Notes: generated by a model from the letters alone, not told the origin. Counted from the first letter of the stretch, positions 1 to 45,648 are shown. The stretch: 64,000 bases of DNA from an uncultured Chlamydiae bacterium (GCA_963718715.1 OY970369.1:166302-230301), one strand, 5' to 3'. Made by a program: numbers and translations.

Positions 1-21
1 CTCCCAAAAGCGACGAAAACC

Positions 22-44
22 AAACTTCGTAGACAGTCTCTAAG
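22..44. repeat. Degenerate solo copy of the GTTTGTGGACAGTCTCTAAG box
   Basis: The + strand reads AAACTTCGTAGACAGTCTCTAAG. The core GACAGTCTCT(A/T)AG is shared with the box at 26060-26078 and with both ends of the 42091-42267 palindrome. It lies at the window edge, so any partner arm cannot be seen. Confidence 0.3.
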
Positions 45-46
45 TA

Positions 47-1492: not shown

Positions 1493-1559
1493 AACTATCC
1501 CTTTTATGCTTTTTTTTTCAAGACTTCAAGCAAAATTGAAGATCAGCTATCATCTGAAG

Positions 1560-2519: not shown

Positions 2520-2522
2520 AGG

Positions 2523-3626: not shown

Positions 3627-3673
3627 ACGTTTCATTTAATTAAAGGATCACATCAATTGGAGTTAAGCGGAAT

Positions 3674-4942: not shown

Positions 4943-4955
4943 TTTTTTACACGCC

Positions 4956-4987
4956 CCCTCTCAGAATAGCTCTAGAGAGGGATTTTG
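4956..4987 (+). terminator. Possible intrinsic terminator after nhaD
   Basis: CCCTCTC-N12-GAGAGGG hairpin followed by ATTTTG. The T-tract is weak. Confidence 0.3.
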
Positions 4988-5006
4988 CAGATTCTCTTAA
5001 AAACAT

Positions 5007-5036
5007 TTGCATGAAAAGAGAGAATTTTTGTATGGT
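5007..5036 (+). promoter_or_regulatory. Candidate rRNA operon promoter (TTGCAT-N18-TATGGT)
   Basis: This is the only sigma70-like hexamer pair seen upstream of the 16S leader, about 180 nt before mature 16S. Pattern match only. Confidence 0.25.
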
Positions 5037-5103
5037 GTTGCATTCCTTAAGGCGAAAAGGCCGAAAGAGGAAAAGCCGAGCAGTAAGCTGGGCAAGTGCT
5101 GTT

Positions 5104-5148
5104 TTGACAGTAGAGATGAAGTGATGAACGAACAAAAGTAAAGCTTGT
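5104..5148 (+). other. 5' half of the pre-16S processing stem
   Basis: The leader CTGTTTTGACAGTAGAGATGAAGTGATGAACGAACAAAAGTAAAGCTTG is largely complementary to spacer 6808-6856. A 13-bp GAAA-capped hairpin follows at 5149-5178. Confidence 0.7.
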
Positions 5149-5213
5149 GCGGGCGGGATATGAAAATATCCCGTCCGCCTGTTAATAAATTCAATCAGAT
5201 TGTCAAGGAATTA

Positions 5214-6768
<1,555 letters not shown>

Positions 6769-6807
6769 TAAGGACAAAGAGGGCAGCCTAGAGCTGCCTC
6801 TTATGGT

Positions 6808-6856
6808 TGAGCAAGCTTTGCTTCTTGTTTTGTTTCATCACTTCTTCTCTGCTGTT
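6808..6856 (+). other. 3' half of the pre-16S processing stem (in the 16S-23S spacer)
   Basis: The reverse complement (…ACAGCAGAGAAGAAGTGATGAAACAAAACAAGAAGCAAAGCTTG) matches leader 5104-5148. No tRNA is recognisable anywhere in spacer 6769-7061. Confidence 0.7.
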
Positions 6857-7061
6857 AAGGCAGTATTGTTATCTTGAAAGTTGTTGTGAGAAGTCAAAAA
6901 TACAAGCGCAATTAAAGAGAAATTAATGGTAACGAACCGGAAGGTTCGTACGTAGATTTCACTGATATAAAGCAGCGTTTGAGAAGAAAATACTTCATAA
7001 AGAGAATTAGGTGAAAGTGATGGCGTAGTTTAAAGCAGCTTTAAAAGACAGAACGTTATGT

Positions 7062-10007
<2,946 letters not shown>

Positions 10008-10178
10008 TTTTTTTTCTTTTCGTCATCGGCGCGGTTCCAGGAAATGGGATCGGGTCCATGATGATGAAAGGTTGTAAAAAAGACGCCAGAGCTTCACCTT
10101 TGAAAAAAGTGGAGTGTAAAGCTTTTCAAGCGCTGTTTTATATTCGTGAAAGTATAGAGATGATCACAACAACAAGCT

Positions 10179-10294
10179 TTCTTGGTGACGATAGAGAAGG
10201 GGGAATACCTGATCCCATCCCGAACTCAGAAGTCAAGCCCTTCCTCGCCGATGGTACTGTACACAAGAGTATGGAAGAGTAGGTTGTCGCCAAA
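10179..10294 (+). rRNA. rrf: 5S ribosomal RNA
   Basis: CTTGGTGACGATAGAG…CCCATCCCGAACTCAGAAGTCAAGC…GAGTAGGTTGTCGCCAA. The terminal helix pairs TTGGTGAC with GTCGCCAA. Confidence 0.9.
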
Positions 10295-10304
10295 TTTTTA
10301 TCAG

Positions 10305-10343: not shown

Positions 10344-10635
10344 CTTCCTTTGCGTCTTAAGCGGCTTGGCGCCTTCGCGTTGCTCTACAGATTGCAGAAT
10401 AAGTCATAGATATCCAGATTGTGCTGCTCAAAGCAATCAACATGATAAACAGGATAAGCATGATACACATGATGGAAAAAGAAGGGGGGGAGAAGCGGCA
10501 CGCCGCTTCTGTTTCCATTTTTTTATCATGCACATCATGCTTATCCTACCTATCATGTTCCGTGCTCTATGCAATAAACTTGAAACAGATGAAGAGCAAC
10601 GCAAAGGCGCCAAGCCGCTGAGACGCAAAGAGAAG
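10344..10635. repeat. Nested palindromic (MITE-like) element, copy 1
   Basis: Outer inverted arms are 10344-10385 and 10594-10635. Inner arms AACATGATAAACAGGATAAGCATGAT / ATCATGCTTATCCTACCTATCATGTT flank an asymmetric core with a central GAAGCGGCACGCCGCTTC hairpin. A second copy lies at 39067-39490. Confidence 0.85.
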
Positions 10636-34411: not shown

Positions 34412-36400
34412 ATGGATACCGGGCTTAAAAAACAACTCAGTAAAATTGCCAACACGGTCCGCGCGCTTTCGATGGATGCTGTCCAAAAAGCCAATTCCGG
34501 CCATCCGGGATTGCCCATGGGGTGCGCCGAATTCGGCGCTTTTTTATACGGAGTTGTCTTGCGCCACAATCCCAAAAATCCAAAATGGCTCAACCGCGAC
34601 CGTTTTGTCCTCTCCGCCGGCCACGGATCGATGTGGCTCTATTCTCTTTTACACCTGTCGGGCTTTCATCTTTCGATGGACGAGATCAAGCGCTTTCGCC
34701 AGCTGCATTCCCATACGCCGGGCCATCCGGAATATGGGATGACGGAGGGGGTAGAAGCGACAACGGGGCCTTTGGGGCAAGGGGTGGGCAATGCGGTGGG
34801 CCAAGCGCTGGGGCTGAAAATCTTGGCTGCCAAGTTCAATGTAGAGGGGTTTTCCCTATTCAATAATAAAGTGTATTGTTTGGCCGGCGATGGCGACCTC
34901 ATGGAAGGGGTTTCCTCGGAAGCCTCTTCCTTGGCCGGGCATCTCTGTTTGGATAATCTCATCCTGATCTACGACTCGAACCAGGTTACTCTGGATGGCC
35001 CCTATTCAGAATCCGCTTCGGAAAACACCAAACTCCGCTATGAAGCGTATGGGTGGGACGTCTATGAAATCGATGGCTATGATTTCGATGCCATGGAGCA
35101 AGTCTTTTCCACCATTCGCGATGGGCAGAAAAAGCCTTGCTTTATCTTGATGCACACCGTGATCGGCAAGGGCTCCCCGCATAAGGCGGGAACGTCCAAA
35201 GCGCACGGAGCGCCTCTAGGCGTGGAAGAGGTCGAAGAGACAAAAGCGATTTTGGGACTCCCTGAAGAGGCTTTTTATGTGCCCCAGTCTGTCTATACTT
35301 TTTTTGAGCAAAAATGCATCAAAGATGCCGCTTTAGAGCAAAAATGGAAAGAGTTATTTCGCAACTGGTCTGAGGCGTATCCCGATCAGTCCCGGGAGTT
35401 TATGCAGATGGTCGAAAAGCATCTCCCTGACGATCTCGAAGCGCAGCTGCGGAAAATCGAGATGAAAAGCCCTTTGGCGGGGCGCAGCGCTTCTCAATCG
35501 GTGTTAAATGTGCTGGGAGAGCTCCTGCCCCAGCTATATGGCGGATCGGCGGATCTCTCCACCTCCGATCTCACCCTAATGAAAAAATTTCCGATCATCG
35601 CGCCCGGCAATTTTAAGGGGCGCAACATCAAATACGGCGTGCGGGAATTCGGCATGGCGACAACTGCCAGCGGACTTGCCGAAACGAACATGATCACTCC
35701 CTATGTGGGAACTTTTCTCACCTTTTCCGATTACATGCGCAATGCGATCCGCTTAGCTGCTTTATCTAAAATCCAGGTGATTTACCAGTTCACCCACGAT
35801 TCGATTTTTTTAGGGGAAGATGGCCCTACCCACCAACCCATTGAGCAGTTGGCCTCTCTGCGGGCGATGCCCGGATTGCATCTGATCCGGCCCGCGGATA
35901 ATGCGGAAGTCAAGATGGCTTGGCTCGCTGCCTTGCGCTACCATGGCCCCACAGCGATTGTCCTATCGCGTCAAAATCTTCCCGACCTCTTGGTGACCAA
36001 TGTCCCTTATGAACAGGGGATGGGCAAAGGCGCTTACATCATTAAAAAAGAAACGGCAAAGCCCCATTTTTCCCTCTTTGCAACCGGCTCAGAAGTGTCT
36101 TTGGCAATGGATGTCGCTGCTGCTTTAGAGAAGCTCGGCAAGAGCGTGCGCGTCGTCTCGATGCCGTGCTGGCAGATTTTCGAAGCGCAGAGCGATGCGT
36201 ATAAGGCAGGCGTCGTGGGCGGCGATATCGGCCAGCGCGTGAGCATCGAAGCGGGAGTGAGTTTTGGTTGGCACAAGTGGATCGGCATGGATGGGATCGC
36301 AATCAGCATGGAAAGTTTTGGGGCGTCCGCTCCCGCCGGCGATTTAGCTGCCGAATTCGGCTTTACCGTCGATTCGATCCTAAACCGGCTCCTCTCATGA
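34412..36400 (+). CDS. tkt: Transketolase
   Basis: Matching segments are SGHPGLPMG, RDRFVLSAGHGS and GDGDLMEGVS (ThDP motif). 662 aa. Confidence 0.95.
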   Translation: MDTGLKKQLSKIANTVRALSMDAVQKANSGHPGLPMGCAEFGAFLYGVVLRHNPKNPKWLNRDRFVLSAGHGSMWLYSLLHLSGFHLSMDEIKRFRQLHSHTPGHPEYGMTEGVEATTGPLGQGVGNAVGQALGLKILAAKFNVEGFSLFNNKVYCLAGDGDLMEGVSSEASSLAGHLCLDNLILIYDSNQVTLDGPYSESASENTKLRYEAYGWDVYEIDGYDFDAMEQVFSTIRDGQKKPCFILMHTVIGKGSPHKAGTSKAHGAPLGVEEVEETKAILGLPEEAFYVPQSVYTFFEQKCIKDAALEQKWKELFRNWSEAYPDQSREFMQMVEKHLPDDLEAQLRKIEMKSPLAGRSASQSVLNVLGELLPQLYGGSADLSTSDLTLMKKFPIIAPGNFKGRNIKYGVREFGMATTASGLAETNMITPYVGTFLTFSDYMRNAIRLAALSKIQVIYQFTHDSIFLGEDGPTHQPIEQLASLRAMPGLHLIRPADNAEVKMAWLAALRYHGPTAIVLSRQNLPDLLVTNVPYEQGMGKGAYIIKKETAKPHFSLFATGSEVSLAMDVAAALEKLGKSVRVVSMPCWQIFEAQSDAYKAGVVGGDIGQRVSIEAGVSFGWHKWIGMDGIAISMESFGASAPAGDLAAEFGFTVDSILNRLLS

Positions 36401-37401
36401 ATCCGCTGCTCCTGAAGGCGTTGAAATGCGAGAATGCAGGCGGCAGACCCCCTGTCTGGCTGATGCGCCAGGCTGGTCGTTTTTTGCCCGAGTACCGCGC
36501 CCTGCGTACGCGCCATGCCCTGTGGGAGATGTTCCACAATAGCGAACTGGCTGCACAGGTCACTCGGTTGCCTTTAGGCGTGCTGGGCGTCGATGCCGCC
36601 ATTCTCTTTTCCGATATCCTGGTCATTGCCGAAGCGTTTGGAATGCAGGTCCATTTTCCAGAAACAGGCGGACCCTATGTGGAACCTCTCATCCGGTCTG
36701 CTGCCGATATCGATGCCCTTGTCCAGTTAGACGTGCGTTCCGTCTTGGGTTATGTGCGCAAGGCGGTTCAGATTTTGAGAGAGGATTTGCGCGTGCCCCT
36801 CATCGGTTTTTGCGGGGCTCCTTTTACCGTAGCCAGCTATTTGATCGAAAAAGGCAAGGTGCAGGATTGGCTTAGCAAGGAGCCGAAGAGTTTCCACCTT
36901 CTGCTGGATAAGCTGGCGCGCGCCTCCATCGATTATGTGCGCATGCAGATCGAGGCGGGTGTGCAGGTGGTGCAGATTTTCGATTCTTGGGCAAGTCTTC
37001 TCGATCCTGCGCAGTTTCATGCCTTTTCGTTGCCCTATCTCCGCCAGATCATCGAGGCGCTTCGAGAGACTAAAGTTCCCCTTATCGTATTTTGCCGCAA
37101 CTCGAGCCTATTTCCTCGGGAATTGGCGGCCCTTGAACCCTCTGGCATCAGTTTTGACTGGCATCGGGAGATGTCCCAGCTGCGCGCGCAGGTCCCCGCC
37201 TCGATTGCGGTGCAGGGAAACCTCCCTCCCGAAATTCTCAAAGCTCCCCGCCCTGTCCTCATCGCAGAGACGCAGCGCCTGTTGCATGCCATGCGGGGAG
37301 AACCCGGCTTCATCTTCAATTTAGGCCATGGCGTGCTTCCAGATACGCCTGTCGACAATGTGCGCTGCCTTGTGGAAACCATCATGAAGGAGTCCATATG
37401 A
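36397..37401 (+). CDS. hemE: Uroporphyrinogen decarboxylase
   Basis: PPVWLMRQAGRFLPEYR is the HemE signature. The start was set at MNPLLLKAL, whose ATG overlaps the tkt stop (ATGA). The track ORF's extra 43 aa lie within tkt. Confidence 0.92.
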   Translation: MNPLLLKALKCENAGGRPPVWLMRQAGRFLPEYRALRTRHALWEMFHNSELAAQVTRLPLGVLGVDAAILFSDILVIAEAFGMQVHFPETGGPYVEPLIRSAADIDALVQLDVRSVLGYVRKAVQILREDLRVPLIGFCGAPFTVASYLIEKGKVQDWLSKEPKSFHLLLDKLARASIDYVRMQIEAGVQVVQIFDSWASLLDPAQFHAFSLPYLRQIIEALRETKVPLIVFCRNSSLFPRELAALEPSGISFDWHREMSQLRAQVPASIAVQGNLPPEILKAPRPVLIAETQRLLHAMRGEPGFIFNLGHGVLPDTPVDNVRCLVETIMKESI

Positions 37402-38441
37402 ATAGGTTCAAGATCTGCTTATCTTGTTTATGTACGCTCGCCTTTTTTCCCCTCGGAGCGGAAAGGATCGAAGTGGTCTCGAATGGAACGTGCAAGCCTG
37501 AACAGTTGACATCCGCTCTTCTCGAAAAGCAGTGGAATGGACAGGTCAAAGAATGCGACTTTGCCGATTATCCCGGGTTGGTCAAGGACCGAACCCGCTT
37601 CGGCAAGATTCTAAGAAAATTGTCGCTCGAACCCTCGTCCATTTCTGTGAAAGAGGAGGTCAGAAAAATCATCTTCATGAACATTCCTCCGAACGGCAAT
37701 CGAGATTTAAACCTGTTTAAACTCCCCAAAGAAAAAATGGTGCTCTTCATGTGGGAGCCGCCGCTGCGCCTCCGCAAGATGTACTCTGACAAGGTCCAAC
37801 AGTGTTTTGCGCGGATCTACACGTGGGATGATGATCTCGTCGACAATCAGACTTACTTCAAGTTTTATTATCCCGAACTGCGTCCGATGATCGAGAATCC
37901 CGTCCCCTTTGAAAAAAAACAGCTCTGCACCATGGTCATCGGCAATACGTCGGATAAATCCTACCGTTCGGAAGAGCTTTATTCGGAACGGAAGAAGACC
38001 ATTGCGTTTTTTGAGAGGATGGGCGAAAGAGGCTTTGTGTTTTACGGGAAAAATTGGGAGCCGGCCGAATACCCCTCCTATCGAGGCCCCGTTGCCGATA
38101 AAATTGCCGTGATTAAAAATTACCGGTTCATCATTTGCTATGAAAATTCCAAAGACCTCAAAGGATACATTACGGAAAAGATTTTCGATTGCTTTGCAGC
38201 CGGAACCGTGCCGATCTATTGGGGGGCGAGCAATGTGGAGGAGTACATTCCAAAAGGATGCTTTATCGACCGGAGGGATTTTCAAAATTTAGACGAGCTT
38301 TACCTCCTCTTGAAAAACATGCAAAAGGAGGAGTATGAGGGATACCTAGAGCGGATCCGCGCCTATTTGCAAAGCGACCGGGCGCAACTTTTTTCCTATG
38401 AACATTTCCAGGAGATATTCCACGAGGCTTGCCGCTCTTGA
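37398..38441 (+). CDS. GT10-family alpha-(1,3)-fucosyltransferase-like glycosyltransferase
   Basis: YRFIICYENSKDLKGYITEKIFDCFAAGTVPIYWGASNVEEYIPKGCFI matches the GT10 motif block (H. pylori FutA: YKFNLCFENS…GYVTEK…IPIYWG). It has an N-terminal signal or anchor. The ATG overlaps the hemE stop. Confidence 0.8.
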   Translation: MNRFKICLSCLCTLAFFPLGAERIEVVSNGTCKPEQLTSALLEKQWNGQVKECDFADYPGLVKDRTRFGKILRKLSLEPSSISVKEEVRKIIFMNIPPNGNRDLNLFKLPKEKMVLFMWEPPLRLRKMYSDKVQQCFARIYTWDDDLVDNQTYFKFYYPELRPMIENPVPFEKKQLCTMVIGNTSDKSYRSEELYSERKKTIAFFERMGERGFVFYGKNWEPAEYPSYRGPVADKIAVIKNYRFIICYENSKDLKGYITEKIFDCFAAGTVPIYWGASNVEEYIPKGCFIDRRDFQNLDELYLLLKNMQKEEYEGYLERIRAYLQSDRAQLFSYEHFQEIFHEACRS

Positions 38442-38451
38442 ACACCTCGGG

Positions 38452-38487
38452 AAAAAAAATAACAGGATTTTAATCCTGTTATTTTTC
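38452..38487. terminator. Bidirectional intrinsic terminator
   Basis: A-run, then ATAACAGGATT-TT-AATCCTGTTAT, then a T-run. It lies between the convergent fucosyltransferase and SWIB genes. Confidence 0.6.
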
Positions 38488-38519
38488 GCTTATTCTCTAA
38501 TAAAAACGATGTGAAATCG

Positions 38520-38864
38520 TTATTTAATGTGTTTATTAAGCAGGCCTGCAAGCTTGAGCATATCGACAGGCTTTTTGCCAATTACTTCAGAGAGTTTGTG
38601 ATCTGGAACGATGAGCCGTCTGTTTTTTGTGTCCTGGCATTTGTGCCCTTTGATATACACCCATAGCTTTTTTACGATCTCTGGGCGCGTCAATTGTTTT
38701 GCGCCTACAACCGCTTGTAGCTCTGGAGACAAGGAATAGGACATCTGGCTCAAGCCCGATTTTCTCCTAGAAGCGGATTTCTTTTTCACTGTCGATTTTC
38801 TTCTCACAGCTGCTTTTTTTCTCACGGCCGGTTTTCTTTTCGCGGCTGCTTTCTTTTTTGCCAT
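38520..38864 (-). CDS. SWIB/MDM2-domain protein with a Lys/Arg-rich N-terminal tail
   Basis: The tail is MAKKKAAAKRKPAVRKKAAVRRK. The SWIB core is LSPELQAVVGAKQLTRPEIVKKLWVYIKGHKCQD…I.PD.KL. This eukaryote-like domain is typical of Chlamydiota. Confidence 0.9.
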   Translation of the reverse strand: MAKKKAAAKRKPAVRKKAAVRRKSTVKKKSASRRKSGLSQMSYSLSPELQAVVGAKQLTRPEIVKKLWVYIKGHKCQDTKNRRLIVPDHKLSEVIGKKPVDMLKLAGLLNKHIK

Positions 38865-39066
38865 AAACTTTCCCCCTTTTCGTGTGTTAAGATGGCAAGA
38901 TCGGAATCTAGAGTTTCCACATCTTCTAATAGGAGATTTAAAAGCTTTTCAGAATCTGTGCAAGAATATTTTTCACTTTTTTACTCAAGGAAGGAGAAAG
39001 GAAAGAAGCTAAATTGATAATCTATTGACAGTGAACCTGTTGTAATTCTACACAAAATAAAGAATC

Positions 39067-39490
39067 CCTTTGCGGCTTTGCGGCGTGGTGCCTTTGCATT
39101 AGATAGATATCCAGATTGCTGCTCAAAGCAATGAACATGATAGATAGGATAAGCATGATGTGCATGATAAAAAAATGGCCGCAAAGCGCCATGCCGCTTC
39201 TGCCGCCTCTTCTTTTTCCATCATGTGTATCATGCTTATCCTATCTATCATGTTCATTGCTCTATGAATCTATCCCGCAATTCAGAAATTTTTTCTTTAT
39301 GGTCTTTCCCCCCCCCTATGAAGTTCCGTTTTTCAGCCATGTGTTCACACATTGTCTTCAAAACGGAACTTCGTAGGGGAAAAAAATCCTGCAAAATAAA
39401 AATTTAGCAATTACGGGATAGATTCATGCAAATAAACTTGAAATTGCAAGCTTATAGGTAAAAGTTATGGGCGCCACGCCGCAAGAGCCT
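39067..39490. repeat. Nested palindromic (MITE-like) element, copy 2, composite
   Basis: Outer arms are 39067-39095 and 39469-39490. The flanks GATATCCAGATTGCTGCTCAAAGCAATGAACATGATA… and …TGCTCTATG are collinear with copy 1. The core (39150-39235) is the reverse complement of copy 1. It carries an internal insertion (next feature). Confidence 0.85.
39263..39426. repeat. Second palindromic element inserted inside copy 2
   Basis: Terminal inverted repeats are ATGAATCTATCCCGCAATT (39263-39281) and AATTACGGGATAGATTCAT (39408-39426). An inner 20-nt perfect inverted repeat is CCCCTATGAAGTTCCGTTTT / AAAACGGAACTTCGTAGGGG. It interrupts the CTATG|CAA(A)TAAACTTGAAA junction that is continuous in copy 1. 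Confidence 0.6.
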
Positions 39491-39583
39491 ATCCCGAAAG
39501 TAAAAAAAATTTGTTTGAGAAAAAATAAAGGGAATTGCGAAACTTCACTTGGTGAAAAAACCGCTTGAGCTATCAGGAGGGGC

Positions 39584-40162
39584 ATGAGCCTTATTATTCT
39601 CGTCGGCATCCCCGGCTCTGGAAAAGGATCTATCTTACAAGAAGCTGTGCGCCAAGCTCCCTTCATTCAAGTCATCAATTATGGGGATAAAATGCTAGAA
39701 GAGGCTGCCTCTGAGGGCTTTTCGCGCGATTTGCTTCGAAAGATGCCCATCCAAGACCAACAAAAACTGGGAGCGAGAGCGGCTAAAAAAATCGTGCAGC
39801 AAAAAAGCGATCAGCCCAAGATCATCGACACGCATGCATTGATCCGAACCGATATCGGTTATTGTCCAGGGCTTCCTCTAGAAGTTTTAAACATCCTTTC
39901 CCCAACGGCTTGTGTATGCGTCGAGTGCGCTCCATCGATCATTCTTCAGAGAAGGAAACAAGACCACGGCCGGAAACGGGATGAGGAAACAGAAGAAGAA
40001 CTGGCTATCCACCAAGAATTAACCCGCTCTTTTCTTGCCGCGTGCTGCAGCATCGCGGGTTCTATTCTCTGCCGCGTGCCCAATGATAGCCCCTCTCTCA
40101 GCCAAAACGCGCTTCCTCTCATTCGTTTAATCCAGGCATTGCATGCAGCTGATCACGCTTAA
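39584..40162 (+). CDS. adkA: Archaeal-type adenylate kinase (AdkA family)
   Basis: Matching segments are the P-loop GIPGSGKGS, INYGDKMLEEA, IIDTHALIRTDIGYCPGLP and IILQRRKQD..RKRD. These align block by block with my recollection of Sulfolobus AdkA (GIPGVGKST, INYGDFML, IDTHAVIRTPSGYLPGLP, IILSRQKRD). Confidence 0.75.
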   Translation: MSLIILVGIPGSGKGSILQEAVRQAPFIQVINYGDKMLEEAASEGFSRDLLRKMPIQDQQKLGARAAKKIVQQKSDQPKIIDTHALIRTDIGYCPGLPLEVLNILSPTACVCVECAPSIILQRRKQDHGRKRDEETEEELAIHQELTRSFLAACCSIAGSILCRVPNDSPSLSQNALPLIRLIQALHAADHA

Positions 40163-40874
40163 CATCTGGGGCGGGCATGTGCGCCGCCCCCTCCTGGAAT
40201 TCATTACAGCCTATCGAGAGGTGGGTATTTTCTGTTTTCAAGAGGTCTACCACCGCGCCCAGGATAGGATATCCGACGATGAGCGGGAAGTGCATCTCAA
40301 TATTTTTTCAGAATTGCATACGCTGCTTCCCGAACACCGGGCTTTTTTCAAACCCGTTGTCGGGGATTCCTATGGGATTGGGATGTTTGTGAAAAAAGAA
40401 ATAGATGTCTTAGAGGAGGGAGAGATTCCCATTTATGAGAATCCCTATTATCTAGGCCGCGGCCCCACCCATTCCAGAAATCTGCAATGGATAAAATGCG
40501 TTATCCGCAACCAGCCTCACACCATTCTGAACGTGCATGGGCTTTGGAACGGGAAGGGCAAAACGGATTGTCCAGAGAGGATCGCTCAATCGCAAAAGAT
40601 TAGAGCGTTCATGGACAGAGTCCCGACGCCGAAAATCCTGTGCGGCGACTTGAATTTGAGACCGGATACAGAAAGCGTGAAAATCCTCGAAGAGGGGATG
40701 AATAACCTGATTCGAATCTATCAGATCAGCTCGACGCGCACGAGCTTATACTCCAAAGAGGAGAAGTTTGCCGATTACGTGTTCACCTCTCCGGAGATCG
40801 CCGTCAATGCATTTGAAGCCTTGAAGGATCAGGTTTCCGATCACGCGCCTCTATTTCTCGATTTCATTTCTTGA
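40143..40874 (+). CDS. Endonuclease/exonuclease/phosphatase (EEP) family protein
   Basis: EEP catalytic contexts are LNIWGG, FCFQEV, LNVHGL, CGDLNLRPD and VSDHAPLFLDF. It overlaps adkA by 20 nt. Confidence 0.85.
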   Translation: MQLITLNIWGGHVRRPLLEFITAYREVGIFCFQEVYHRAQDRISDDEREVHLNIFSELHTLLPEHRAFFKPVVGDSYGIGMFVKKEIDVLEEGEIPIYENPYYLGRGPTHSRNLQWIKCVIRNQPHTILNVHGLWNGKGKTDCPERIAQSQKIRAFMDRVPTPKILCGDLNLRPDTESVKILEEGMNNLIRIYQISSTRTSLYSKEEKFADYVFTSPEIAVNAFEALKDQVSDHAPLFLDFIS

Positions 40875-42084
40875 AATATTCGGCGTATTTGAGAGGCTCG
40901 TGTTGCTTCCAAGGACAGTAGCTGTTGCAGAATTCGATCCGCTCTCCTAGGGAGGGATGGGTGCTGCGCCAGAAGGTGAACACCGTTCCCGGATAGGGGA
41001 TCGCCAAATTTTTCTGTTGGAGGGCGATAAAGGCGCGTGCAGCCGCTTCATTGTTTTGCGTGATCTCCAGCCCAAAGCGATCCGCCTCATGCTCCATGTA
41101 GCGGGAAACATAGTTGGAAAGGGGAGAGGAAAGGAGCGCAAAGAGGTTGATTAAAAGAAGAAGGAGGGGCAGGGAGGCGATATCATAGAGGTGTTTGAAC
41201 CCAAATCGCTTGTGATAGCGGTGGAGTAGAAAGGTAGCCGACTTGTAGGTGAGGTAAAACATCGCAAAGGAGAGGGCTCCAAAGTAGACGATCGACCACC
41301 AGATGTGGTTCAGCACATAGTGCCCCATCTCATGTCCCATCACGAACAGCAGCTCATCCGGCGTCATCTGTTTGATGGTCGTGTCCCAAAGGACGATCCG
41401 GTTTGTCGTGCCGAATCCGACCACGTAGGCATTTAACGTCCCGGTGTCTTGGCTCTTATCCACTTCAAACACCCGCCCATGCTCGATTCCCGCTCGCGCA
41501 GCTAAGCCGAGGATTTGCTGTTCCAGCTGTTTATCTTTCATGGGTTCAAACCGGTTGAATAGCGGATCGATCCAGATCGGTTGGATAAACACCAGGATAA
41601 ACATCACCCCGATGCTTGTCAGGCTGCTGTACACCCACCATCTCCGCGGGCTTTTTTTCAACAGGAGGTAAAAAATCCAGATAAACGCGCACGAGCCGAG
41701 CAATGCGACGAGGATCCCTTTGCCGTAATTCTCCAGCCACCTTCCCAGCTTCTGCGTGGAAAGACCATACGCGTGTTCCCTGATGTAGTCTGCGTAAAAA
41801 TCGAGAGGGATATTGAGTATTTTATAGAGCGTGAGAAACATCGCCAAGTAGATTACAAGGGAGAAAAACCACTTCTTTCCCCACTTTTCCGCTAAGGTCC
41901 CCAGCTTTCCGGTCAATCCCCAAAGCAGAAAAAGCAGCGGCACGATCAAGCTCCACTCCTGCTGAATGATCCACAAGACATTGCCGCTCTGATAATAGCG
42001 GATTGCCTGATCCGTAGCCGCTGGAACGGCCGCCTGGGCGCACTCTTGGCTCGCTATCGCTGCAACTAACACAGTAAGCATCAT
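40864..42084 (-). CDS. M48-family (Ste24/HtpX-like) zinc metalloprotease, membrane
   Basis: The HExxH is in MGHEMGHYVLNH and a downstream glutamate is in EHEADRFG. It has multiple transmembrane segments. The start was set at ATGATG (MMLTVLV, signal-like) with an AAGGAG Shine-Dalgarno. The track's TTG at 42108 lies inside the upstream palindrome. Confidence 0.85.
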   Translation of the reverse strand: MMLTVLVAAIASQECAQAAVPAATDQAIRYYQSGNVLWIIQQEWSLIVPLLFLLWGLTGKLGTLAEKWGKKWFFSLVIYLAMFLTLYKILNIPLDFYADYIREHAYGLSTQKLGRWLENYGKGILVALLGSCAFIWIFYLLLKKSPRRWWVYSSLTSIGVMFILVFIQPIWIDPLFNRFEPMKDKQLEQQILGLAARAGIEHGRVFEVDKSQDTGTLNAYVVGFGTTNRIVLWDTTIKQMTPDELLFVMGHEMGHYVLNHIWWSIVYFGALSFAMFYLTYKSATFLLHRYHKRFGFKHLYDIASLPLLLLLINLFALLSSPLSNYVSRYMEHEADRFGLEITQNNEAAARAFIALQQKNLAIPYPGTVFTFWRSTHPSLGERIEFCNSYCPWKQHEPLKYAEYFKK

Positions 42085-42090
42085 TTTCTC

Positions 42091-42267
42091 CTTAGAGACT
42101 GTCCACAAACTTAGGTTCTGTCGATTTTCGGGTTCTTTTGAGCCGATTTTGCATTCTTTTTTGGGGGGTCATATACGCAGTTGATATTACCCCCCAAAAA
42201 AGAATGCAAAATCGGCCAAAATAATCCCGAAAATCGACGAACCCTTAGTTTGTGGACAGTCTCTTAG
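42091..42267. repeat. 177-bp near-perfect palindrome with GTTTGTGGACAGTCTCT(A/T)AG termini
   Basis: The left arm is 42091-42168 (CTTAGAGACTGTCCACAAACTTAGGTTCTGTCGATTTTCGGG…TTTTTTGGGGGG). The right arm is 42190-42267 (CCCCCCAAAAAA…CCCGAAAATCGACGAACCCTTAGTTTGTGGACAGTCTCTTAG). The left end touches the Shine-Dalgarno of the M48 gene. Confidence 0.9.
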
Positions 42268-42377
42268 CGCGATTATTTCATGATGTTTTGTTTGTTCGCC
42301 CATTTATAGTAGCTTTGGCTATTATACCAAAGAAAATTGAAGAATCGGCAAAATCCGTTGAAATGATTCTACCACTC

Positions 42378-42424
42378 GTTCGCTTCGCTCTCTAGAGAGC
42401 ACAGAGGACACAGAGAGAAAAATG
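42378..42424. repeat. CAGAG-rich dispersed repeat unit
   Basis: GTTCGCTTCGCTCTCTAGAGAGCACAGAGGACACAGAGAGAAAAAATG. It shares GCGAAGCTCTAGAG and CAGAGGA…GAAAAAAT with the 28196-28416 element. Confidence 0.45.
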
Positions 42425-42536
42425 TATGTTCTATTTAAAGCTGTTTGAGCGCTGTTATTCTTAACAAATTGACTTTCTCATTGAGGAGTGTCAAAATCTC
42501 TTTCTATTTCAAAAAGAGCAGCGAACATAGGTTTTT

Positions 42537-43021
42537 ATGTCTAAAAATGGAAAAAGGACTGTTATCATTACGGGGGCTGGCCAAGGGATTGGTCAAGCCA
42601 TTGCTTTTCGCTTTGCTGCTGACGGATCGAATATAGTCATTGCTTCAAAAGATAGTCCCGCTCAAATCCAAGAAACAATTGAGGGAATCCAATCTGCAGG
42701 AGGAAAGGCATTAGGCCTTGAGGTCAATTCTCTTTGGCCTCAAACAAATATTGCTACTCAGAGACTCAAGGATCACCTTTCCCCGAAAGTTTACGCTGGG
42801 AGCCGTTGGCCCTCTGTGATGGCAGATGCTGCCTATGAGCTTGCCCGTCGAACAGTTCAAGAAGCAACGGGGCAATTTTTATCGATGAAACTTTATTGCG
42901 AGAATCGGGAGTCAGAGACTTTTCTCGCTACGCAGTTGATCCGACACAGCCATTAGTACAGACGCTATTCCTTCCACTTAAAGAAGGAATGATTCCAATT
43001 TCCCGAGAGTTGTTTTGTTAG
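42537..43021 (+). pseudogene. Degraded short-chain dehydrogenase/reductase (HSDL2-like): internal deletion plus frameshift
   Basis: The N-terminal Rossmann motif is TGAGQGIGQAIA. It is joined directly (…LGLEVN|SLWPQTNIAT…) to the C-terminal region, so the NNAG and Ser-Tyr-Lys catalytic segments are missing. After TGQF, the expected continuation FIDETLLRESGVRDFSRYAVDPTQPL… is in the +1 frame, at a T5 run. Confidence 0.6.
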
Positions 43022-43207
43022 GGGGTACACGACAGCATGTGTTTTATTTAAAATAATTTATATATAATTGTTTTTAACAAGTTGAAAATGAAAAGGTTAA
43101 GGAGTTAAAAATTATTAAATGTCGGAAAATCCGACTAAAATATATCGAAATTCTGTACTGTATATATCATATATGTCAGAATATCTAACATCAATCAGAG
43201 GGTGGCT

Positions 43208-44341
43208 ATGAATAATCAAGAAATCGCTAGAAGGGTCCGCGAGATTCGCGAACAGCGCGGTTTATCGCAACAAGAGCTGGCTCATTTGATGGGTTGGAAA
43301 AGTCACGCTTCTATAGTAGCGATTGAAAACGGGGAGCAAAGCATTAAAATGCAAGAACTCCTAAAACTAGCAACTATTTTGAATGTCTCTCCAGAAGTGT
43401 TTTATTCAGAAACATCAATAACATATTCACAACGACCAGTAATTCTTTGGAGAAAAAAAGCAATTGATCCAAAGATTGCATTAAAAGAAGAATATAATCT
43501 GATTGAATATTATCAAAACTACCGGTTTGTCGAAAGATTGGTGGACACTTCTTCTCCATCAATCAAAACTCTTCCAAGAGAATCTTGCAATATTAGTTCT
43601 GCTACTGTTGATTGGGCCAATCAATTAGCAGAAAAAATTCATAGAGAATTCCGTCTAGGCGATTATCCAGCAGCGTTATTAACAAAATGCCTCGAAGAAG
43701 AATACGGGGTTTTACTCATAAGCCGTCCTCTAGAAGATGGATCTGCAGCCTGTTATCGAGAGGAAGATGGATCTGTTGTTATGTTCAATGAAAAAGAAGT
43801 TCGATGGAGACAGACATTCACGTTAGCTCATGAACTTTTCCATCTTATCACCTGGGATACATCATTGATTTCGCAAATACAATCTAATGAAGAATTATTT
43901 CATAAAAATGAGAAATTAGCTGATGCCTTTGCTGCGGCATTGCTCATGCCACTTCAAATGATCGGTTTGGATGTGCGTGGAAATAAACTTACTTATTCAT
44001 TCATAGTAGCTTTGGCAGGTAAATATCAAGTATCTAAACAAGCAATGTTATTGCGTTTACGCTATTTACGATTGATTGATCAACAAGCGGTCGACCAAGC
44101 TCTTGCGGATTCCGAATTTTCACAGCTCGATCATGATACATTTAAGCTAGCGTTTGCCTCTATCCCACCTTTTGGCAATCGTTTTATCCGATTAGCTTAT
44201 TTAGCCTATGAAAAGGGCAGATTATCCAAGGCTAGGCTTGCAAAAATGCTCAGCGTAAAACTGCGCGATTTAGACCAATATCTGGCAGAAAAAGGATTGT
44301 ATTTAACAAATGACAAAGAAATTAAAGGAGTTACTTGTTGA
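43208..44341 (+). CDS. Fusion protein: XRE-family HTH plus ImmA/IrrE (M78, COG2856) zinc metallopeptidase
   Basis: The HTH is IREQRGLSQQELAHLMGWKSHASIVAIENGEQ. The peptidase region has HExxH in LAHELFHLITW and a downstream NEKLADAFAAALLMP. The ATG at 43208 is preferred (GAGGGTGG upstream); a GTG at 43202 is possible. Confidence 0.88.
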   Translation: MNNQEIARRVREIREQRGLSQQELAHLMGWKSHASIVAIENGEQSIKMQELLKLATILNVSPEVFYSETSITYSQRPVILWRKKAIDPKIALKEEYNLIEYYQNYRFVERLVDTSSPSIKTLPRESCNISSATVDWANQLAEKIHREFRLGDYPAALLTKCLEEEYGVLLISRPLEDGSAACYREEDGSVVMFNEKEVRWRQTFTLAHELFHLITWDTSLISQIQSNEELFHKNEKLADAFAAALLMPLQMIGLDVRGNKLTYSFIVALAGKYQVSKQAMLLRLRYLRLIDQQAVDQALADSEFSQLDHDTFKLAFASIPPFGNRFIRLAYLAYEKGRLSKARLAKMLSVKLRDLDQYLAEKGLYLTNDKEIKGVTC

Positions 44342-44858
44342 TACCATGGTAGTAATAGATGCTCATGAGAATGGTTATTGGGAACATCTATGTAATGGTT
44401 ATCGTGTCTTTTTACCGGGTACAGTTATTGAAGATGAATTGTTTTTTTTCACATCTGACAAAGACAAGAGCAAGAAACCTCTGTTAGTATCTAAGTGGAT
44501 CGATCAAGGAAAAATCTCCCGTATCGATGCAAAAATTGCCGATTTCTCTGAATTAACTAAAAGATTATCGAGCGATTTTCGCCTAGGTCTTGATGCAGGA
44601 GAGTTAGAAGCTTTAGCTATTCTCATATCGAAGGATCATCAACACCTTTTCTTTACCACTGCAGATCGAGCAGCAGTTAAAGCTCTGGGAGTTTTGAGCC
44701 TGGGTTCGCGAGGACGCTCTGTAGAAGATCTATTAAATAACTTACAGGGATTTTCGACAAAAAACAGAAAAATAGCACCGCGCTTTACAAAAGAATGGTT
44801 TCAAAAAGTTTTGAATGAAGGGTTTACCGAACAGCATCTTTGGTTAAAGCCATCTTGA
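44310..44858 (+). CDS. PIN-like nuclease domain protein (DUF4411-like), putative toxin/effector partner
   Basis: The N-terminal LLVDTMVVIDA is a typical PIN strand-1 aspartate motif (D11). Later acidic residues are in DAGELEALAIL (E98) and FFTTADRAAVKAL (D119). It overlaps the upstream gene by 32 nt. The fold assignment rests on motifs only. Confidence 0.6.
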   Translation: MTKKLKELLVDTMVVIDAHENGYWEHLCNGYRVFLPGTVIEDELFFFTSDKDKSKKPLLVSKWIDQGKISRIDAKIADFSELTKRLSSDFRLGLDAGELEALAILISKDHQHLFFTTADRAAVKALGVLSLGSRGRSVEDLLNNLQGFSTKNRKIAPRFTKEWFQKVLNEGFTEQHLWLKPS

Positions 44859-44871
44859 ATCTCTATTCTTA

Positions 44872-45648
44872 CTACCATTTTGCGAGGGGGGGGAGGGAGC
44901 AGAGGATCGCATCGGGATTGCCTCCGGATCTAAAGCCGAATTGGGTGCCCCGATCATAGAGCAGATTGAATTCGACGTAATGGGCGCGCATTTCGAGCTG
45001 TTTTTCTTTCTCTTCGGGGGTGAAGGGGTGGTGGATGCGCCGCTGGTAAATGGGCAAGATGGTATCTAGGAAAGTGGAACCGACGGTTTTCCACAGCGAG
45101 AGATCGGCCTCTTCATCGCCGCTGTTCCAGTGATCGAAAAAAATCCCTCCCATCCCCCGCTCTTTTTTGCGGTGGGGGATGTAGAAATATTCCCGCGCAT
45201 TTTGGGAGAATTGAGCGTAGAGGGAACCCGTGGCCATTTTGGCGATCGCATGGAAGTGGCGTCGATCTTCTTCGTAGGGAAATCCCATCGGGGTTAGATC
45301 ATAGCCGCCGCCGAACCAGCGCTTCTCTTCTGTTTCGATGTAGCGGATGTTCATGTGAACGGTCGGCGCATGGGGATTGGCCATGTGCGTGATCAGGCTG
45401 ATCCCCGTTGCAAAAAAGGGGCCGGAACCGTCTTGCATAGGGAAACGATCGCCCCAAACCGCAGACCAGTTGACAGCGGCCTTTTCGAAAATCGCGCCGC
45501 GCAGCACGCCCATTTCTCCGCCGCCGCCTGTGGTATGGTTCCAGGGGGTGCGCTGGAACCGGCCGGCGGTTTCCAGGTCTTGAAAACGGGCTATGATCTC
45601 TTCGCGCAGGGCTTGTAGGAAAGCGATGATTTCTTGCTTGCGTTGCAT
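44872..45648 (-). CDS. hemF: Oxygen-dependent coproporphyrinogen III oxidase
   Basis: HemF-type blocks are GGGGEMGVLRGAIFEKAAVNWS, HMANPHAPTVHMNIRY, RWFGGGYDLTP, RGMGGIFFD and YVEFNLLYDRGT.F. Confidence 0.9.
   Translation of the reverse strand: MQRKQEIIAFLQALREEIIARFQDLETAGRFQRTPWNHTTGGGGEMGVLRGAIFEKAAVNWSAVWGDRFPMQDGSGPFFATGISLITHMANPHAPTVHMNIRYIETEEKRWFGGGYDLTPMGFPYEEDRRHFHAIAKMATGSLYAQFSQNAREYFYIPHRKKERGMGGIFFDHWNSGDEEADLSLWKTVGSTFLDTILPIYQRRIHHPFTPEEKEKQLEMRAHYVEFNLLYDRGTQFGFRSGGNPDAILCSLPPLAKW

Follow-up and report, generated by a model that had tools for sequence, protein, structure and literature searches.

Fusions of an XRE-type helix-turn-helix (HTH) to a COG2856 peptidase, in operons with PIN toxins, were predicted as an XRE-COG2856-PIN architecture in 2009 and 2017 (PMC2701414; PMC5499597). 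UPF0175 is described in these surveys as a predicted antitoxin module for PIN toxins (PMC2701414; PMC5499597), reported solely beside COG2405 PINs (PMC5499597). Antitoxins carrying an ImmA domain have been validated in RosmerTA and RipAB (PMC10440598; PMC12795458), the validated RosmerTA systems give phage defence (PMC10440598; bioRxiv 10.1101/2022.05.11.491447), and ImmA-type antitoxins act as hubs that swap toxins, PIN-like ones included (PMC10440598).

In this study, we analysed a two-gene cassette of 1.7 kb in the genome of an uncultured Chlamydiae bacterium. The window, that is, the whole stretch of DNA analysed, comprises 64,000 nt (GCA_963718715.1 OY970369.1:166302-230301), and all coordinates are counted from its first letter. 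From the open reading frames, both genes lie on the plus strand: gene 1 (43208-44341) encodes a protein of 377 aa with three domains, a predicted repressor and antitoxin, and gene 2 (44310-44858) a PIN-like putative nuclease toxin of 182 aa. An earlier note on this DNA had described two co-directional genes overlapping by 32 nt, and two such ORFs do exist, with an overlap of exactly that length. We read the cassette, with a probability of about 0.7, as an intact, horizontally acquired and self-contained toxin-antitoxin (TA) system, type II-like and of the XRE/ImmA-IrrE peptidase/PIN kind; the core of the earlier reading, a candidate TA or defence module of foreign, AT-rich composition, survived every test run, and no outcome named in that note as refuting it turned up.

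The cassette was imported horizontally from a low-GC donor into this environmental chlamydial genome. The excess of AT over the neighbouring DNA, noted earlier, is borne out by sliding windows: GC content is 36-39% within 42800-44800 and 50-58% on either side (400-nt windows), and GC at third codon positions (GC3) behaves likewise, with 0.28 in gene 1 and 0.30 in gene 2 versus 0.57-0.67 in the native hemF, hemY, tkt, M48, GT10 and EEP genes. In other genomes the GC of the module tracks that of its host (33-68%), so that it is foreign only to the composition of the present one. In 100-nt windows, GC falls from 0.52-0.56 (41900-42099) to 0.26-0.50 (42100-44899) and returns to 0.54 beyond. Together with GC3, this delimits a low-GC island of about 2.8 kb (42100-44871; GC3 0.28-0.38 overall), which holds a long hairpin, a pseudogene of the short-chain dehydrogenase (SDR) type and the TA cassette, and whose 3' limit lies 1 nt short of the hemF stop codon. 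The island had been placed from 42960 onward, with the SDR gene as its boundary; its low GC stands, its start does not, being near 42100. The SDR gene (PRK08278-like; 42537-43021, plus strand) is indeed a decayed pseudogene: only its N-terminus matches SDR models (adh_short at residues 8-64, NF006133 at residues 6-62), the N-terminal Rossmann part being intact, about 130 middle codons are gone, and the C-terminal part is read in a different frame, the peptide ...GVRDFSRYAVDP... being in that of the ORF at 42896-43021. Given its GC3 of 0.31-0.38, it belongs to the island and does not bound it.

Two further observations support the horizontal acquisition. When window positions 42000-45400 were compared by blastn with the loci of relatives, the closest relative (L010) shared 87.7% identity over 1742 bp, bounded exactly by the features of the cassette, from 2 nt before the upstream operator-like dyad O1 to 1 nt past the gene 2 stop codon. 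This homology block (43119-44859, plus strand) defines the transferable unit. Moreover, hemF (44872-45648, minus strand), full length at 258 aa versus 257-265 aa in relatives, abuts hemE-tkt in two relatives, where the cassette is absent; the synteny comparison proposed in the earlier note thus shows that the pair is not kept at this locus. As noted before, we found no tRNA in the whole 64-kb window, and no integrase or convincing direct repeat flanking the cassette. Searched by tblastn, the toxin of the window and a distant member (P0095) had no match among 72,556 plasmids or 50,697 phages, and chlamydial-clade patterns confirmed no relative in IMG/VR. The neighbours of the cassette in the window are housekeeping genes (heme biosynthesis, M48 peptidase); no defence gene adjoins it there, nor did we find an integrative conjugative element, CBASS or repair regulon near it. 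Such surroundings would suit a purely selfish addiction module, that is, a classical type II TA that persists through post-segregational killing or by stabilizing the small island that brought it, takes no part in defence against phage and responds to nothing more specific than antitoxin turnover, a reading to which we return with the relatives.

Gene 1 may start at GTG 43202 (379 aa) or ATG 43208 (377 aa), the latter in agreement with the public gene call (P0313, 377 aa) and with the alignment of orthologues. The fusion of an XRE HTH to an ImmA-type peptidase, claimed from sequence alone, is sustained, with both domains above Pfam cut-offs. The XRE-type HTH (residues 10-64, listed as 12-66 in the Pfam match; 43235-43399) matches HTH_3 (PF01381) at 2.8e-15, with 56.5 bits versus a cut-off of 23, and superposes on the HTHs of the controller proteins C.AhdI and C.BclI with an rmsd of 1.0-1.1 Å in Foldseek. 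The Peptidase_M78 (ImmA/IrrE) domain (residues 164-284, listed as 166-286 in the Pfam match; 43697-44059) matches PF06114 (COG2856) at 2.6e-12, with 47.1 bits versus a cut-off of 22, as do all 69 homologues of gene 1; its HELFH motif (43829-43843) and the candidate third ligand E235 (43910-43912) supply four residues, H208, E209, H212 and E235, that are invariant among these 69. The earlier reading missed a third domain. At the C-terminus, residues 326-370 (44183-44317) form a UPF0175-like three-helix domain (PF03683, COG2886), with helices predicted by AlphaFold2 (AF2) at 324-335, 341-347 and 352-361. In the gene 1 protein itself the match is at 1e-4 and 22.3 bits, under the cut-off of 27.9; across the family, 49 of 69 members match at E≤0.01, the best at 1.8e-8. 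A conserved tail, ...LTNDKEI, follows this domain, and a PIN-like gene lies directly downstream of the UPF0175-bearing gene in every intact locus. The domain is probably the toxin-binding part of the protein, and we infer that it neutralizes the toxin.

The AF2 model of gene 1 (pLDDT 89.4) finds its top Foldseek matches in IrrE (3dti at 1.6e-4; 3dte), CapP (7t5t) and PprI (8sln, a PprI-ssDNA structure). Among PADLOC models, 16 for RmrA match, the best being PDLC03954 (8.2e-33, residues 9-296); most of them cease aligning near residue 296. The capP model matches at 2.8e-22. Since the closest peptidase structures, one of them with ssDNA, come from derepression switches, the pair could alternatively be a stress-responsive switch and not a TA at all, with gene 1 a damage-sensing derepressor like IrrE/DdrO or CapP/CapH and gene 2 a non-toxic, stress-induced PIN-like nuclease for RNA processing or repair, or the cargo of a regulator. 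The UPF0175 domain argues against this switch, for a predicted antitoxin module of PIN toxins (PMC2701414; PMC5499597) is fused to the regulator in those 49 of 69 members.

For gene 2, modelling and conservation point to a PIN-like fold with a conserved acidic set, and hence to a candidate nuclease. The residues singled out from the sequence alone (D11, E98 and D119) are present and conserved, and AF2 with Foldseek predicts a fold like the one that had been proposed, the Rossmann-like, 5-stranded alpha/beta/alpha fold of PIN domains. In a set of 66 homologues that reaches down to 25% identity, D11, G97 and E98 are invariant, and E43, E100 and D119 are conserved in at least 90%; the catalytic candidates are D11 (44340-44342), E43 (44436-44438), E98 (44601-44603) and D119 of a T117-x-D119 motif (44664-44666). 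In the AF2 model (pLDDT 89.8, pTM 0.86), D11 follows strand 7-10, E43 lies in helix 37-46, E98 starts helix 96-106, and T117-A-D119 follows strand 114-116; D11 after strand 1 and T117-A-D119 after strand 4 are placed as in PIN domains. The best 15 Foldseek matches in the PDB are all PIN domains (Nob1, PH0500, VapC4, PAE2754 and TTHA0540; probability up to 1.0, E about 1e-3), and those at a probability of at least 0.75 are likewise all PIN (Nob1 8cbj/2lcq, PH0500 1v96/1ye5, VapC4 5h4g, PAE2754 and 3ix7). With E values of 1e-3 to 0.1 and TM scores by target of 0.45-0.65, the match is moderate, not strong. The sole match in BFVD is also a PIN protein.

At the level of sequence the family, which comprises 879 clusters, stands apart. 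Gene 2 had no match in Pfam, NCBIfam, PHROG or PADLOC models (PADLOC at E≤1), sequence searches linked it to no PIN family and no PDB chain, and no Pfam PIN-clan model matched any of 47 family members (37 close at E≤10, 10 distant at E≤1). PADLOC run on 66 family members returned weak PDC-S70 matches only, in 7 of them, the best at 1.2e-4. The earlier suggestion of DUF4411 (PF14367) is rejected, since no profile matched at E≤1 for gene 2, E≤10 for the 37 close or E≤1 for the 10 distant homologues; gene 2 is therefore not DUF4411. Searched by profile in the same sets, COG2405/DUF3368 (PF11848) gave no match either. Gene 2 may correspond to PIN_14, a cluster of 213 sequences outside Pfam and with the same context.

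Upstream of gene 1 lie two operator-like dyads. O1 (43121-43135, GTCGGAAAATCCGAC) forms a perfect palindrome of 6-3-6 layout and lies 87 nt before the ATG; O2 (43175-43189, GTCAGAATATCTAAC), symmetric at 5 of 6 positions, lies 33 nt before it, and the two are 54 bp apart. The pattern GTCRGAANNNNNRAC has only two matches in 64 kb, one of them O1, with 0.37 expected. An O1-type site is found at -86 to -90 in seven loci, and two dyads at about -87 and -33, 53-54 bp apart, recur in seven loci. Compensatory half-site changes occur among the seven (e.g. GTCATA...TATGAC in L005), and O2 is perfectly palindromic in L001 (GTCAGAATGTCTGAC). In distant loci (L013 and L014) the two-dyad layout and its positions are kept and the half-sites differ. 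Sequence conservation thus points to O1 and O2 as likely operators of the gene 1 protein. The imperfect palindrome proposed as operator in the earlier note (43151-43179) does exist, and its right arm is the left half of O2, but it is unconserved and the dyads are conserved instead. A Shine-Dalgarno-like GAGGG (43198-43202, plus strand), read from the sequence, stands 5 nt before ATG 43208. At the other end of gene 1, the 32-nt overlap (44310-44341, plus strand) codes for both the gene 1 terminus ...NDKEIKGVTC-stop and the gene 2 start MTKKLKELLVD. It is identical in L001, L003, L010 and the distant L013, and implies translational coupling of gene 2 to gene 1. Genomic hallmarks of type II TA systems are seen here: small genes that overlap by 32 nt, a DNA-binding domain in the antitoxin and a mobile, patchy distribution.

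The gene pair was found in more than 10 loci and at least eight different genomic contexts. A member of the gene 1 family is followed by one of the gene 2 family in L001, L003, L005, L008 and L010, and L013 (197 bits) and L014 (67 bits), whose antitoxins are 30-36% identical, keep the same pairing. Some of the surroundings are suggestive: the L005 pair adjoins a type I HsdR-like helicase, an HNH protein and Fic, the L008 pair a MafI2-like gene, the L015 locus PemK, and the distant L014 pair sits between the DISARM genes drmMI and drmA. This last position is that expected of a regulator, and the stress-responsive switch would have the pair regulating DISARM; nonetheless, strict pairing and overlapping genes persist over deep divergence, and the repeated decay of the toxin first is what a harmful gene would show, so that we consider such a switch very unlikely. 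At least four relatives (L003, L007, L010 and L015) carry a decayed toxin gene; the toxin is therefore often dispensable. A toxin that frequently decays while its antitoxin is kept is what the life cycle of an addictive module would lead one to expect, and the many unrelated contexts are those of selfish TAs. However, an apparently active zinc peptidase, with HExxH...E invariant in 69 sequences, would be needless for simple addiction, the validated RosmerTA systems defend against phage (PMC10440598; bioRxiv 10.1101/2022.05.11.491447), and members lie inside a DISARM operon and beside a type I restriction-modification helicase. We consider pure addiction unlikely.

Both genes are under purifying selection, with family-wide dN/dS of 0.07-0.18 for gene 1 and 0.06-0.17 for gene 2. 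These values (0.06-0.18 overall) bear on the fate of the cassette, which shares its low-GC island with a clearly decayed SDR gene and has broken copies in several chlamydial relatives, as would a recent import that is silent or inactive and heading for the same decay. Yet both ORFs are full length, and the conserved catalytic residues, operators and Shine-Dalgarno motif are intact; a non-functional passenger is, in our view, extremely improbable.

Returning to an intact TA system, it is plausible to propose how toxicity, neutralization, self-cleavage, trigger and RNA target would fit together. The gene 1 protein, as a dimer, would use its XRE HTH to bind O1 and O2 and would repress its own bicistronic operon. 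Gene 2, translationally coupled, would be a Mg2+-dependent PIN-like ribonuclease with D11, E43, E98 and D119 as active-site candidates, held in an inactive complex by the UPF0175 domain and the conserved tail. By analogy with ImmA, IrrE/PprI and CapP, a trigger such as DNA damage, ssDNA or phage infection may activate the ImmA/IrrE-type peptidase, whose target, in cis or in trans, would be the antitoxin itself; the cut would derepress the operon and free the nuclease. We found no demonstration in the literature of self-cleavage for any fused HTH-M78 antitoxin. The freed nuclease would degrade RNA and arrest growth, with abortive infection or post-segregational killing as the outcome.

The cassette is notable mainly for its host, since systems of this kind are reported to be almost lacking in chlamydiae, for which a "quasi absence" of known defence has been described (PMC9090908; bioRxiv 10.1101/2022.05.11.491447). 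Taken by itself, it is not very remarkable among the members of a TA/anti-phage class that had been predicted before and is largely untested. Chlamydiae are infected by ssDNA microviruses, and ssDNA sensing by the peptidase domain would fit such phages. That the pair truly serves Chlamydiota as an anti-phage abortive-infection system, whose IrrE/CapP-like domain senses ssDNA, cuts the repressor-antitoxin and releases a UPF0175-bound PIN nuclease, is a rather doubtful idea. If true, it would reveal an overlooked, widespread defence module with sensor, repressor and antitoxin fused, as might be drawn from a toxin family of some 880 clusters with no Pfam, NCBIfam or PHROG match, weak PDC-S70 matches only and one DISARM-embedded member.

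How, then, does the cassette compare with known systems? With VapBC it shares a toxin of predicted PIN fold, four acidic residues as the candidate site, an upstream overlapping antitoxin gene and likely operators that are palindromic; gene 2, however, lacks sequence similarity to PF01850 and, at 182 aa, is larger, carrying a hairpin/helix insertion (about residues 47-66) and a helical extension at its C-terminus, and the VapBC antitoxin is an 80-aa RHH/AbrB/Phd protein, whereas gene 1 encodes 377 aa and contains an enzyme. ImmA/ImmR (ICEBs1), IrrE(PprI)/DdrO (Deinococcus) and CapP/CapH (CBASS) have in common with gene 1 the peptidase fold and an XRE partner, but protease and repressor are separate there and the genes they cause to be transcribed are those of a mobile element, a repair regulon or CBASS, whereas here a single protein combines the two and has a putative nuclease as its coupled partner. 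In UPF0175 (COG2886)/COG2405 pairs, UPF0175 is a small stand-alone antitoxin, and gene 1 has its UPF0175-like part as the last of three domains in an HTH-peptidase of 377 aa; for gene 2, no DUF3368 match was obtained at the level of sequence. Presumably, gene 2 and COG2405 nonetheless share an order of motifs, which we take to be GE.EA.AL followed by ..AD..A...L..LG....G.S.E.LL.

The RosmerTA systems, represented by RmrTA of Gordonia phage Kita and RipAB (Spr1630/Spr1629) of S. pneumoniae, likewise have an antitoxin with an XRE HTH fused to ImmA/M78, in a two-gene operon with a variable toxin, and gene 1 matches RmrA models. The differences lie in gene 2, which matches no RmrT model, and in the UPF0175 domain, which falls outside most RmrA alignments; with spr1629 (RipB, NF052239), gene 1 scores 84.2 bits versus an equivalog cut-off of 335, indicating a related architecture in another family. 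The validated Rosmer toxins are not PIN nucleases: Kita RmrT depolarizes the membrane and RipA targets the sliding clamp (PMC10440598; PMC12795458). The "three-component" XRE/COG2856 (DUF955)/PIN systems (Makarova 2009; Matelska 2017) follow the same logic, with a fused HTH-Zn peptidase upstream of a co-transcribed PIN-like gene. The types given there by Matelska 2017 are DUF4411.1, COG2405, PIN_14, PIN_20 and PIN_26, and gene 2 matches neither PF14367 nor PF11848. A third, UPF0175-like antitoxin domain, as predicted in gene 1, goes unmentioned in the accessible portions of these descriptions. Judged by its sequence features, the cassette would be classed with these "three-component" TAs, in the ImmA-antitoxin (RosmerTA) zone of the NetFlax network.

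Two genes on the forward strand of the window, both intact, probably form an autoregulated toxin-antitoxin (TA) cassette, which was acquired from elsewhere. ORF calls agree with the positions, shared direction and 32-nt overlap read earlier: gene 1, the antitoxin candidate, runs from a GTG at 43202 or an ATG at 43208 to 44341, and gene 2, the toxin candidate, from 44310 to 44858. A GAGGG stands 5 nt before the ATG at 43208, from which the publicly annotated protein (P0313, 377 aa) also begins. For gene 2 the public annotation (P0001, 170 aa) takes M13 as its start, thus omitting the MTKKLK..LLVD N-terminus, strand 1 and the catalytic candidate D11 (window 44310-44345); the upstream ATG 44310 is supported by 32 of the 37 aligned homologues, which start MTKK....

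Gene 1 is, as proposed from the sequence, a fusion of an XRE helix-turn-helix (HTH) with an ImmA/IrrE-type HExxH peptidase. Pfam matches above cut-off were obtained for HTH_3 (E 2.8e-15) and Peptidase_M78 (E 2.6e-12), and H208, E209, H212 and E235 do not vary across 69 sequences with identity down to 27%. A third domain probably follows: residues 326-370 give a sub-threshold Pfam match to UPF0175, a putative antitoxin family (E 1e-4), which is unlikely to be noise, because 49 of the 69 family members match PF03683 at E<=0.01 (best 1.8e-8); a precomputed match to PF03683 is carried by some 20 of the 120 gene 1 homologues listed. The AlphaFold model (pLDDT 89.4) comprises an N-terminal HTH, a long helix, a disordered linker (approximately 112-133), the peptidase domain and, at the C-terminus, a three-helix bundle (324-361) with a conserved tail. 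In Foldseek searches the peptidase matches IrrE (3dti, 3dte), CapP (7t5t) and PprI with ssDNA (8sln), and further matches are to Mtb XRE-DUF955 regulators and controller-protein HTHs. The best PADLOC models are those of RmrA, the RosmerTA antitoxin (8e-33); most of these alignments end near residue 296, so the UPF0175 domain is excluded from them. The NCBIfam model of the spr1629 (RipB) antitoxin scores 84 bits, far under its equivalog cut-off of 335 bits.

By sequence, gene 2 belongs to a family that curated libraries hardly recognize. Nothing significant was found in Pfam, NCBIfam, PADLOC or PHROGs, nor did any of 37 close and 10 distant homologues match Pfam; thus gene 2 is not a member of DUF4411, a family raised in the earlier note, nor by sequence of any Pfam PIN family. 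Weak PADLOC matches to PDC-S70 occur in 7 of 66 family members, and comparison with PDB sequences, using the single sequence and two profiles, gave noise only. The family is nevertheless large: besides 43 homologues in the word index, a profile search of 1.84 billion representatives recovered 879 clusters (defined at 50% identity) at E<=1e-3 and 519 at E<=1e-10, for which look-ups returned no name beyond "hypothetical protein" and no taxonomy. The AlphaFold model (pLDDT 89.8, pTM 0.86) has only PIN domains as Foldseek neighbours, namely Nob1, PH0500, VapC4, PAE2754, TTHA0540 and SMG6 (prob up to 1.0, E ~1e-3, TM 0.45-0.65 depending on the target), and its sole BFVD match is also a PIN protein. 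In a 66-sequence alignment of the family, reaching down to 25% identity, D11, G97 and E98 are invariant, and E43, E100, D119, W24, S137, E139 and G171 are at least 90% conserved. In the model, D11 directly follows strand 1 and T117-A-D119 directly follows strand 4, E43 is part of the helix that succeeds strand 2, and a helix begins at E98; as modelled, the conserved acids occupy the positions of PIN catalytic residues along the fold. This agrees with the PIN-like nature of gene 2, and with the choice of D11, E98 and D119, put forward in the earlier note.

The two genes travel together. A gene 1-type antitoxin followed by a gene 2-type PIN-like gene was observed in the loci of relatives L001, L003, L005, L006, L007, L008, L009, L010, L013 and L014, even at considerable divergence: the antitoxin is 36% identical in L013 and 30% in L014, with downstream proteins scoring 197 and 67 bits, respectively, against the gene 2 family profile. 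The 32-nt overlap recurs in L001, L003, L010 and L013, and dN/dS values of 0.06-0.18 indicate purifying selection on both genes. In L001 the pair is flanked by a group II intron reverse transcriptase fragment and an IS4-like transposase. Among genome-collection loci with a gene 2 relative, 4 of 4 are Chlamydiae or Parachlamydiales MAGs. Several relatives have a broken toxin next to an intact antitoxin: a premature stop at codon 144 in L010 (toxin at 6001-6546), a frameshift after approximately residue 108 in L003 (6001-6540) and a 64-aa remnant in L015 (5130-5324). In L007 (3900-5489) the toxin is truncated and the antitoxin split into two ORFs. This repeated breakage in chlamydial relatives is consistent with a harmful gene decaying. 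A tblastn search of the window (E<=50) for another, decayed copy of the module found none.

Upstream of gene 1, an alignment of 150 nt from six loci revealed two conserved 15-bp dyads, O1 (GTCGGAAAATCCGAC, 43121-43135), a perfect 6-3-6 palindrome, and O2 (GTCAGAATATCTAAC, 43175-43189). The pattern GTCRGAANNNNNRAC is matched in the 64 kb by O1 and O2 only (expected 0.37); since it was derived from these very sites, the real evidence is their conservation across loci. In seven loci the dyads are found between -86 and -90 and between -32 and -36, 53-54 bp apart, with compensatory half-site changes in L005 (GTCATA...TATGAC) and L001 (GTCAGA...TCTGAC). The distant L013 has two perfect dyads at the same positions (-84, -32) with other half-sites (GCAATA/TATTGC and TGCAAC/GTTGCA), and L014 has two of TTGCAA type. 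The 29-nt imperfect palindrome at 43151-43179, put forward earlier as the operator, is not conserved as such: only its right arm, identical with the left half of O2, is kept in the six aligned upstream regions. At its threshold, a sigma-70 scan placed no forward-strand promoter in the interval from O1 to O2; a tentative -35/-10 pair, CCGACT-17-TGTACT (43131-43159), itself not called by the scan, would place O1 over the -35 element and O2 downstream of the start site.

Overall, we suggest, with a probability of about 0.7, that the cassette is an autoregulated TA system. The HTH of gene 1 would act on the two operators, providing autoregulation; the UPF0175 domain, as the candidate neutralizing domain, would clamp the putatively toxic PIN-like RNase encoded by gene 2, whose target would be RNA; and the M78 domain would be the trigger, responding to some signal by destroying the fused repressor-antitoxin, presumably through self-cleavage. 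This likely division of labour is readable from the sequence, so that the ImmA-antitoxin mechanism can be tested by three domain deletions.

The cassette stands apart from its surroundings in composition. The contrast between an AT-rich segment and GC-richer neighbours, already noticed by eye, is evident both in 400-nt windows (GC 36-39% across 42800-44800 vs 50-58% on both sides) and at third codon positions (GC3 0.28 for gene 1 and 0.30 for gene 2 vs 0.57-0.67 for hemF, hemY, tkt, M48 peptidase, GT10 and EEP). The low-GC stretch starts near 42100 rather than at 42960, as first estimated, and so takes in the SDR pseudogene (42537-43021). This gene is decayed, as the earlier note stated: an N-terminal Rossmann segment is kept, with matches to SDR models limited to residues 6-62, about 130 central codons are missing (judged by eye) and the end lies in another frame (42896-43021). 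Its GC3 (0.31-0.38) is cassette-like, unlike that of native genes; it is thus part of the foreign patch and not a native bounding landmark, and it probably came in from outside, together with the cassette or earlier, instead of having decayed from a resident gene. A near-perfect hairpin of about 175 nt (42091-42267; 86% self-complementary, DNA fold -78.8 kcal/mol, z = -19 vs shuffles) sits at the island's left edge, with the start of the M48 peptidase gene on one side and the pseudogene on the other; it may represent an element of the MITE/REP type or a terminator working in both directions. Neither hairpin nor pseudogene has a match in the loci of relatives compared (blastn/tblastn). Long imperfect palindromes of a second family (39127-39261, 39264-39427 and 10406-10633; 74-81% self-complementary) occupy two further intergenic patches of low GC, one close to the SWIB gene, the other just past the 5S rRNA, and are 80% alike between the two sites. 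The complete rRNA operon (5214-10295) comprises 16S (5214-6768), 23S (7062-10007) and 5S (10181-10295), with a 293-nt spacer without tRNA.

Such modules might be AT-rich by nature, whatever their history, and the low GC of the window copy would then say little about its source. This is ruled out by the relatives: module GC follows the host elsewhere (33% in L005, 38% in L010, 68% in L014 with a host of 67%), and among the loci compared it clashes with the flanks in the window only, which argues for import from a low-GC donor. The pair is not fixed at this locus. Two relatives, L011 and L012, have hemF and hemE-tkt in convergent orientation, overlapping only slightly. In the window, 7.4 kb lie between hemE, which extends to 37401 after tkt (34412-36400), and the hemF stop (44872). 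Within this expansion (37398-44871) are genes for a GT10 glycosyltransferase, an M48 peptidase, an EEP protein and a SWIB protein, the last a chlamydial hallmark, and an adenylate-kinase-like ORF of archaeal type; the low-GC island comes last, after the peptidase; GT10, EEP and M48 have native GC3. The adjoining hemF (44872-45648, reverse strand, 258 aa) is full length, since relatives measure 257-265 aa, ruling out truncation by the insertion; its closest named homologues (69-76% identity) are from Chlamydiota, Parachlamydiaceae, Rhabdochlamydiaceae and Waddlia, and the contig that holds the window measures 2.22 Mb. In L015 (1-5324), the related module with the decayed toxin lies approximately 4 kb from hemF, in a different orientation relative to it than in the window, which may reflect coincidence or a recombination-prone neighbourhood.

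The closest DNA relative, L010, is 87.7% identical over 1742 bp, and homology runs from 43119, 2 nt before O1, to 44859, 1 nt past the gene 2 stop. These exact limits identify the bare cassette as the mobile unit and, by extension, define the minimal mobile unit of such cassettes. With a dS of 0.44, the L010 lineage was not the immediate donor. Gene 2 and a distant family member (P0095), compared by tblastn with 72,556 plasmids and 50,697 phages, matched none of them, and an IMG/VR scan with chlamydial-clade patterns gave no confirmed relative. As read before, neither an integrase nor a tRNA was found in the window (ARAGORN negative across the 64 kb); an immunity region of a prophage or ICE is ruled out by this lack of integrase, tRNA and phage genes. 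The reported absence of flanking direct repeats stands with one unexplained exception, an 18/19-nt repeat (CATTTATAGTAGCTTTGGC / CATTCATAGTAGCTTTGGC) at 42301-42319, between the hairpin and the SDR pseudogene, and 43998-44016, within gene 1 where it encodes ...FIVALAG...; such a pair was matched in just 2 of 400 Markov simulations.

A role in phage defence in chlamydiae is less likely than not. None of the neighbours of the window cassette is a defence gene. Elsewhere, the L014 pair (1-9107, metagenomic contig, 67% GC) lies between the DISARM genes drmMI (1145 bits) and drmA (829 bits) and may regulate or accompany DISARM; the L005 pair is preceded by a type I HsdR-like helicase and an HNH protein, with a Fic gene near; and the modules of L015 and L008 adjoin, respectively, a PemK toxin gene, which directly precedes it, and a MafI2-like gene.

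The feature noticed earlier is real, its interpretation as a foreign TA or defence candidate is essentially right, and the system is of a kind already predicted. According to Makarova et al. (2009; PMC2701414), XRE-COG2856 fusions occur in operons with PIN and RelE toxins, a three-component TA is proposed, and UPF0175 (COG2886) is suggested as a PIN antitoxin. Matelska et al. (2017; PMC5499597) name COG2405, DUF4411, PIN_14, PIN_20 and PIN_26 as the PIN families that share a transcript with HTH plus DUF955, UPF0175 being placed there with COG2405 only; the gene 2 family may be PIN_14. Zn-peptidase-antitoxin systems were named RosmerTA and shown to defend against phage (Millman et al. 2022, bioRxiv 10.1101/2022.05.11.491447), the ImmA antitoxin is a hub that also pairs with PIN-like toxins, with a phage-encoded RmrTA validated (Ernits et al. 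2023, PMC10440598), and RipAB (Spr1630/1629) was characterized in 2025 (PMC12795458). Current understanding is therefore not overturned, architecture and likely role having been predicted before; the window provides an intact example of the long-predicted XRE/ImmA/PIN "three-component" TA. Given that the gene 2 family is unrecognized by Pfam, NCBIfam and PHROGs, and weakly by PADLOC, standard defence and TA finders probably miss such systems, and as many environmental Chlamydiota assemblies carry the module, in part decayed, defence surveys of Chlamydiae may undercount. Compared with the known XRE/ImmA/PIN systems, the window cassette differs in a toxin family absent from curated libraries, in an antitoxin that is a three-domain HTH-M78-UPF0175 fusion, and in its host phylum, reported by surveys to be nearly devoid of defence systems (PMC9090908; bioRxiv 10.1101/2022.05.11.491447).
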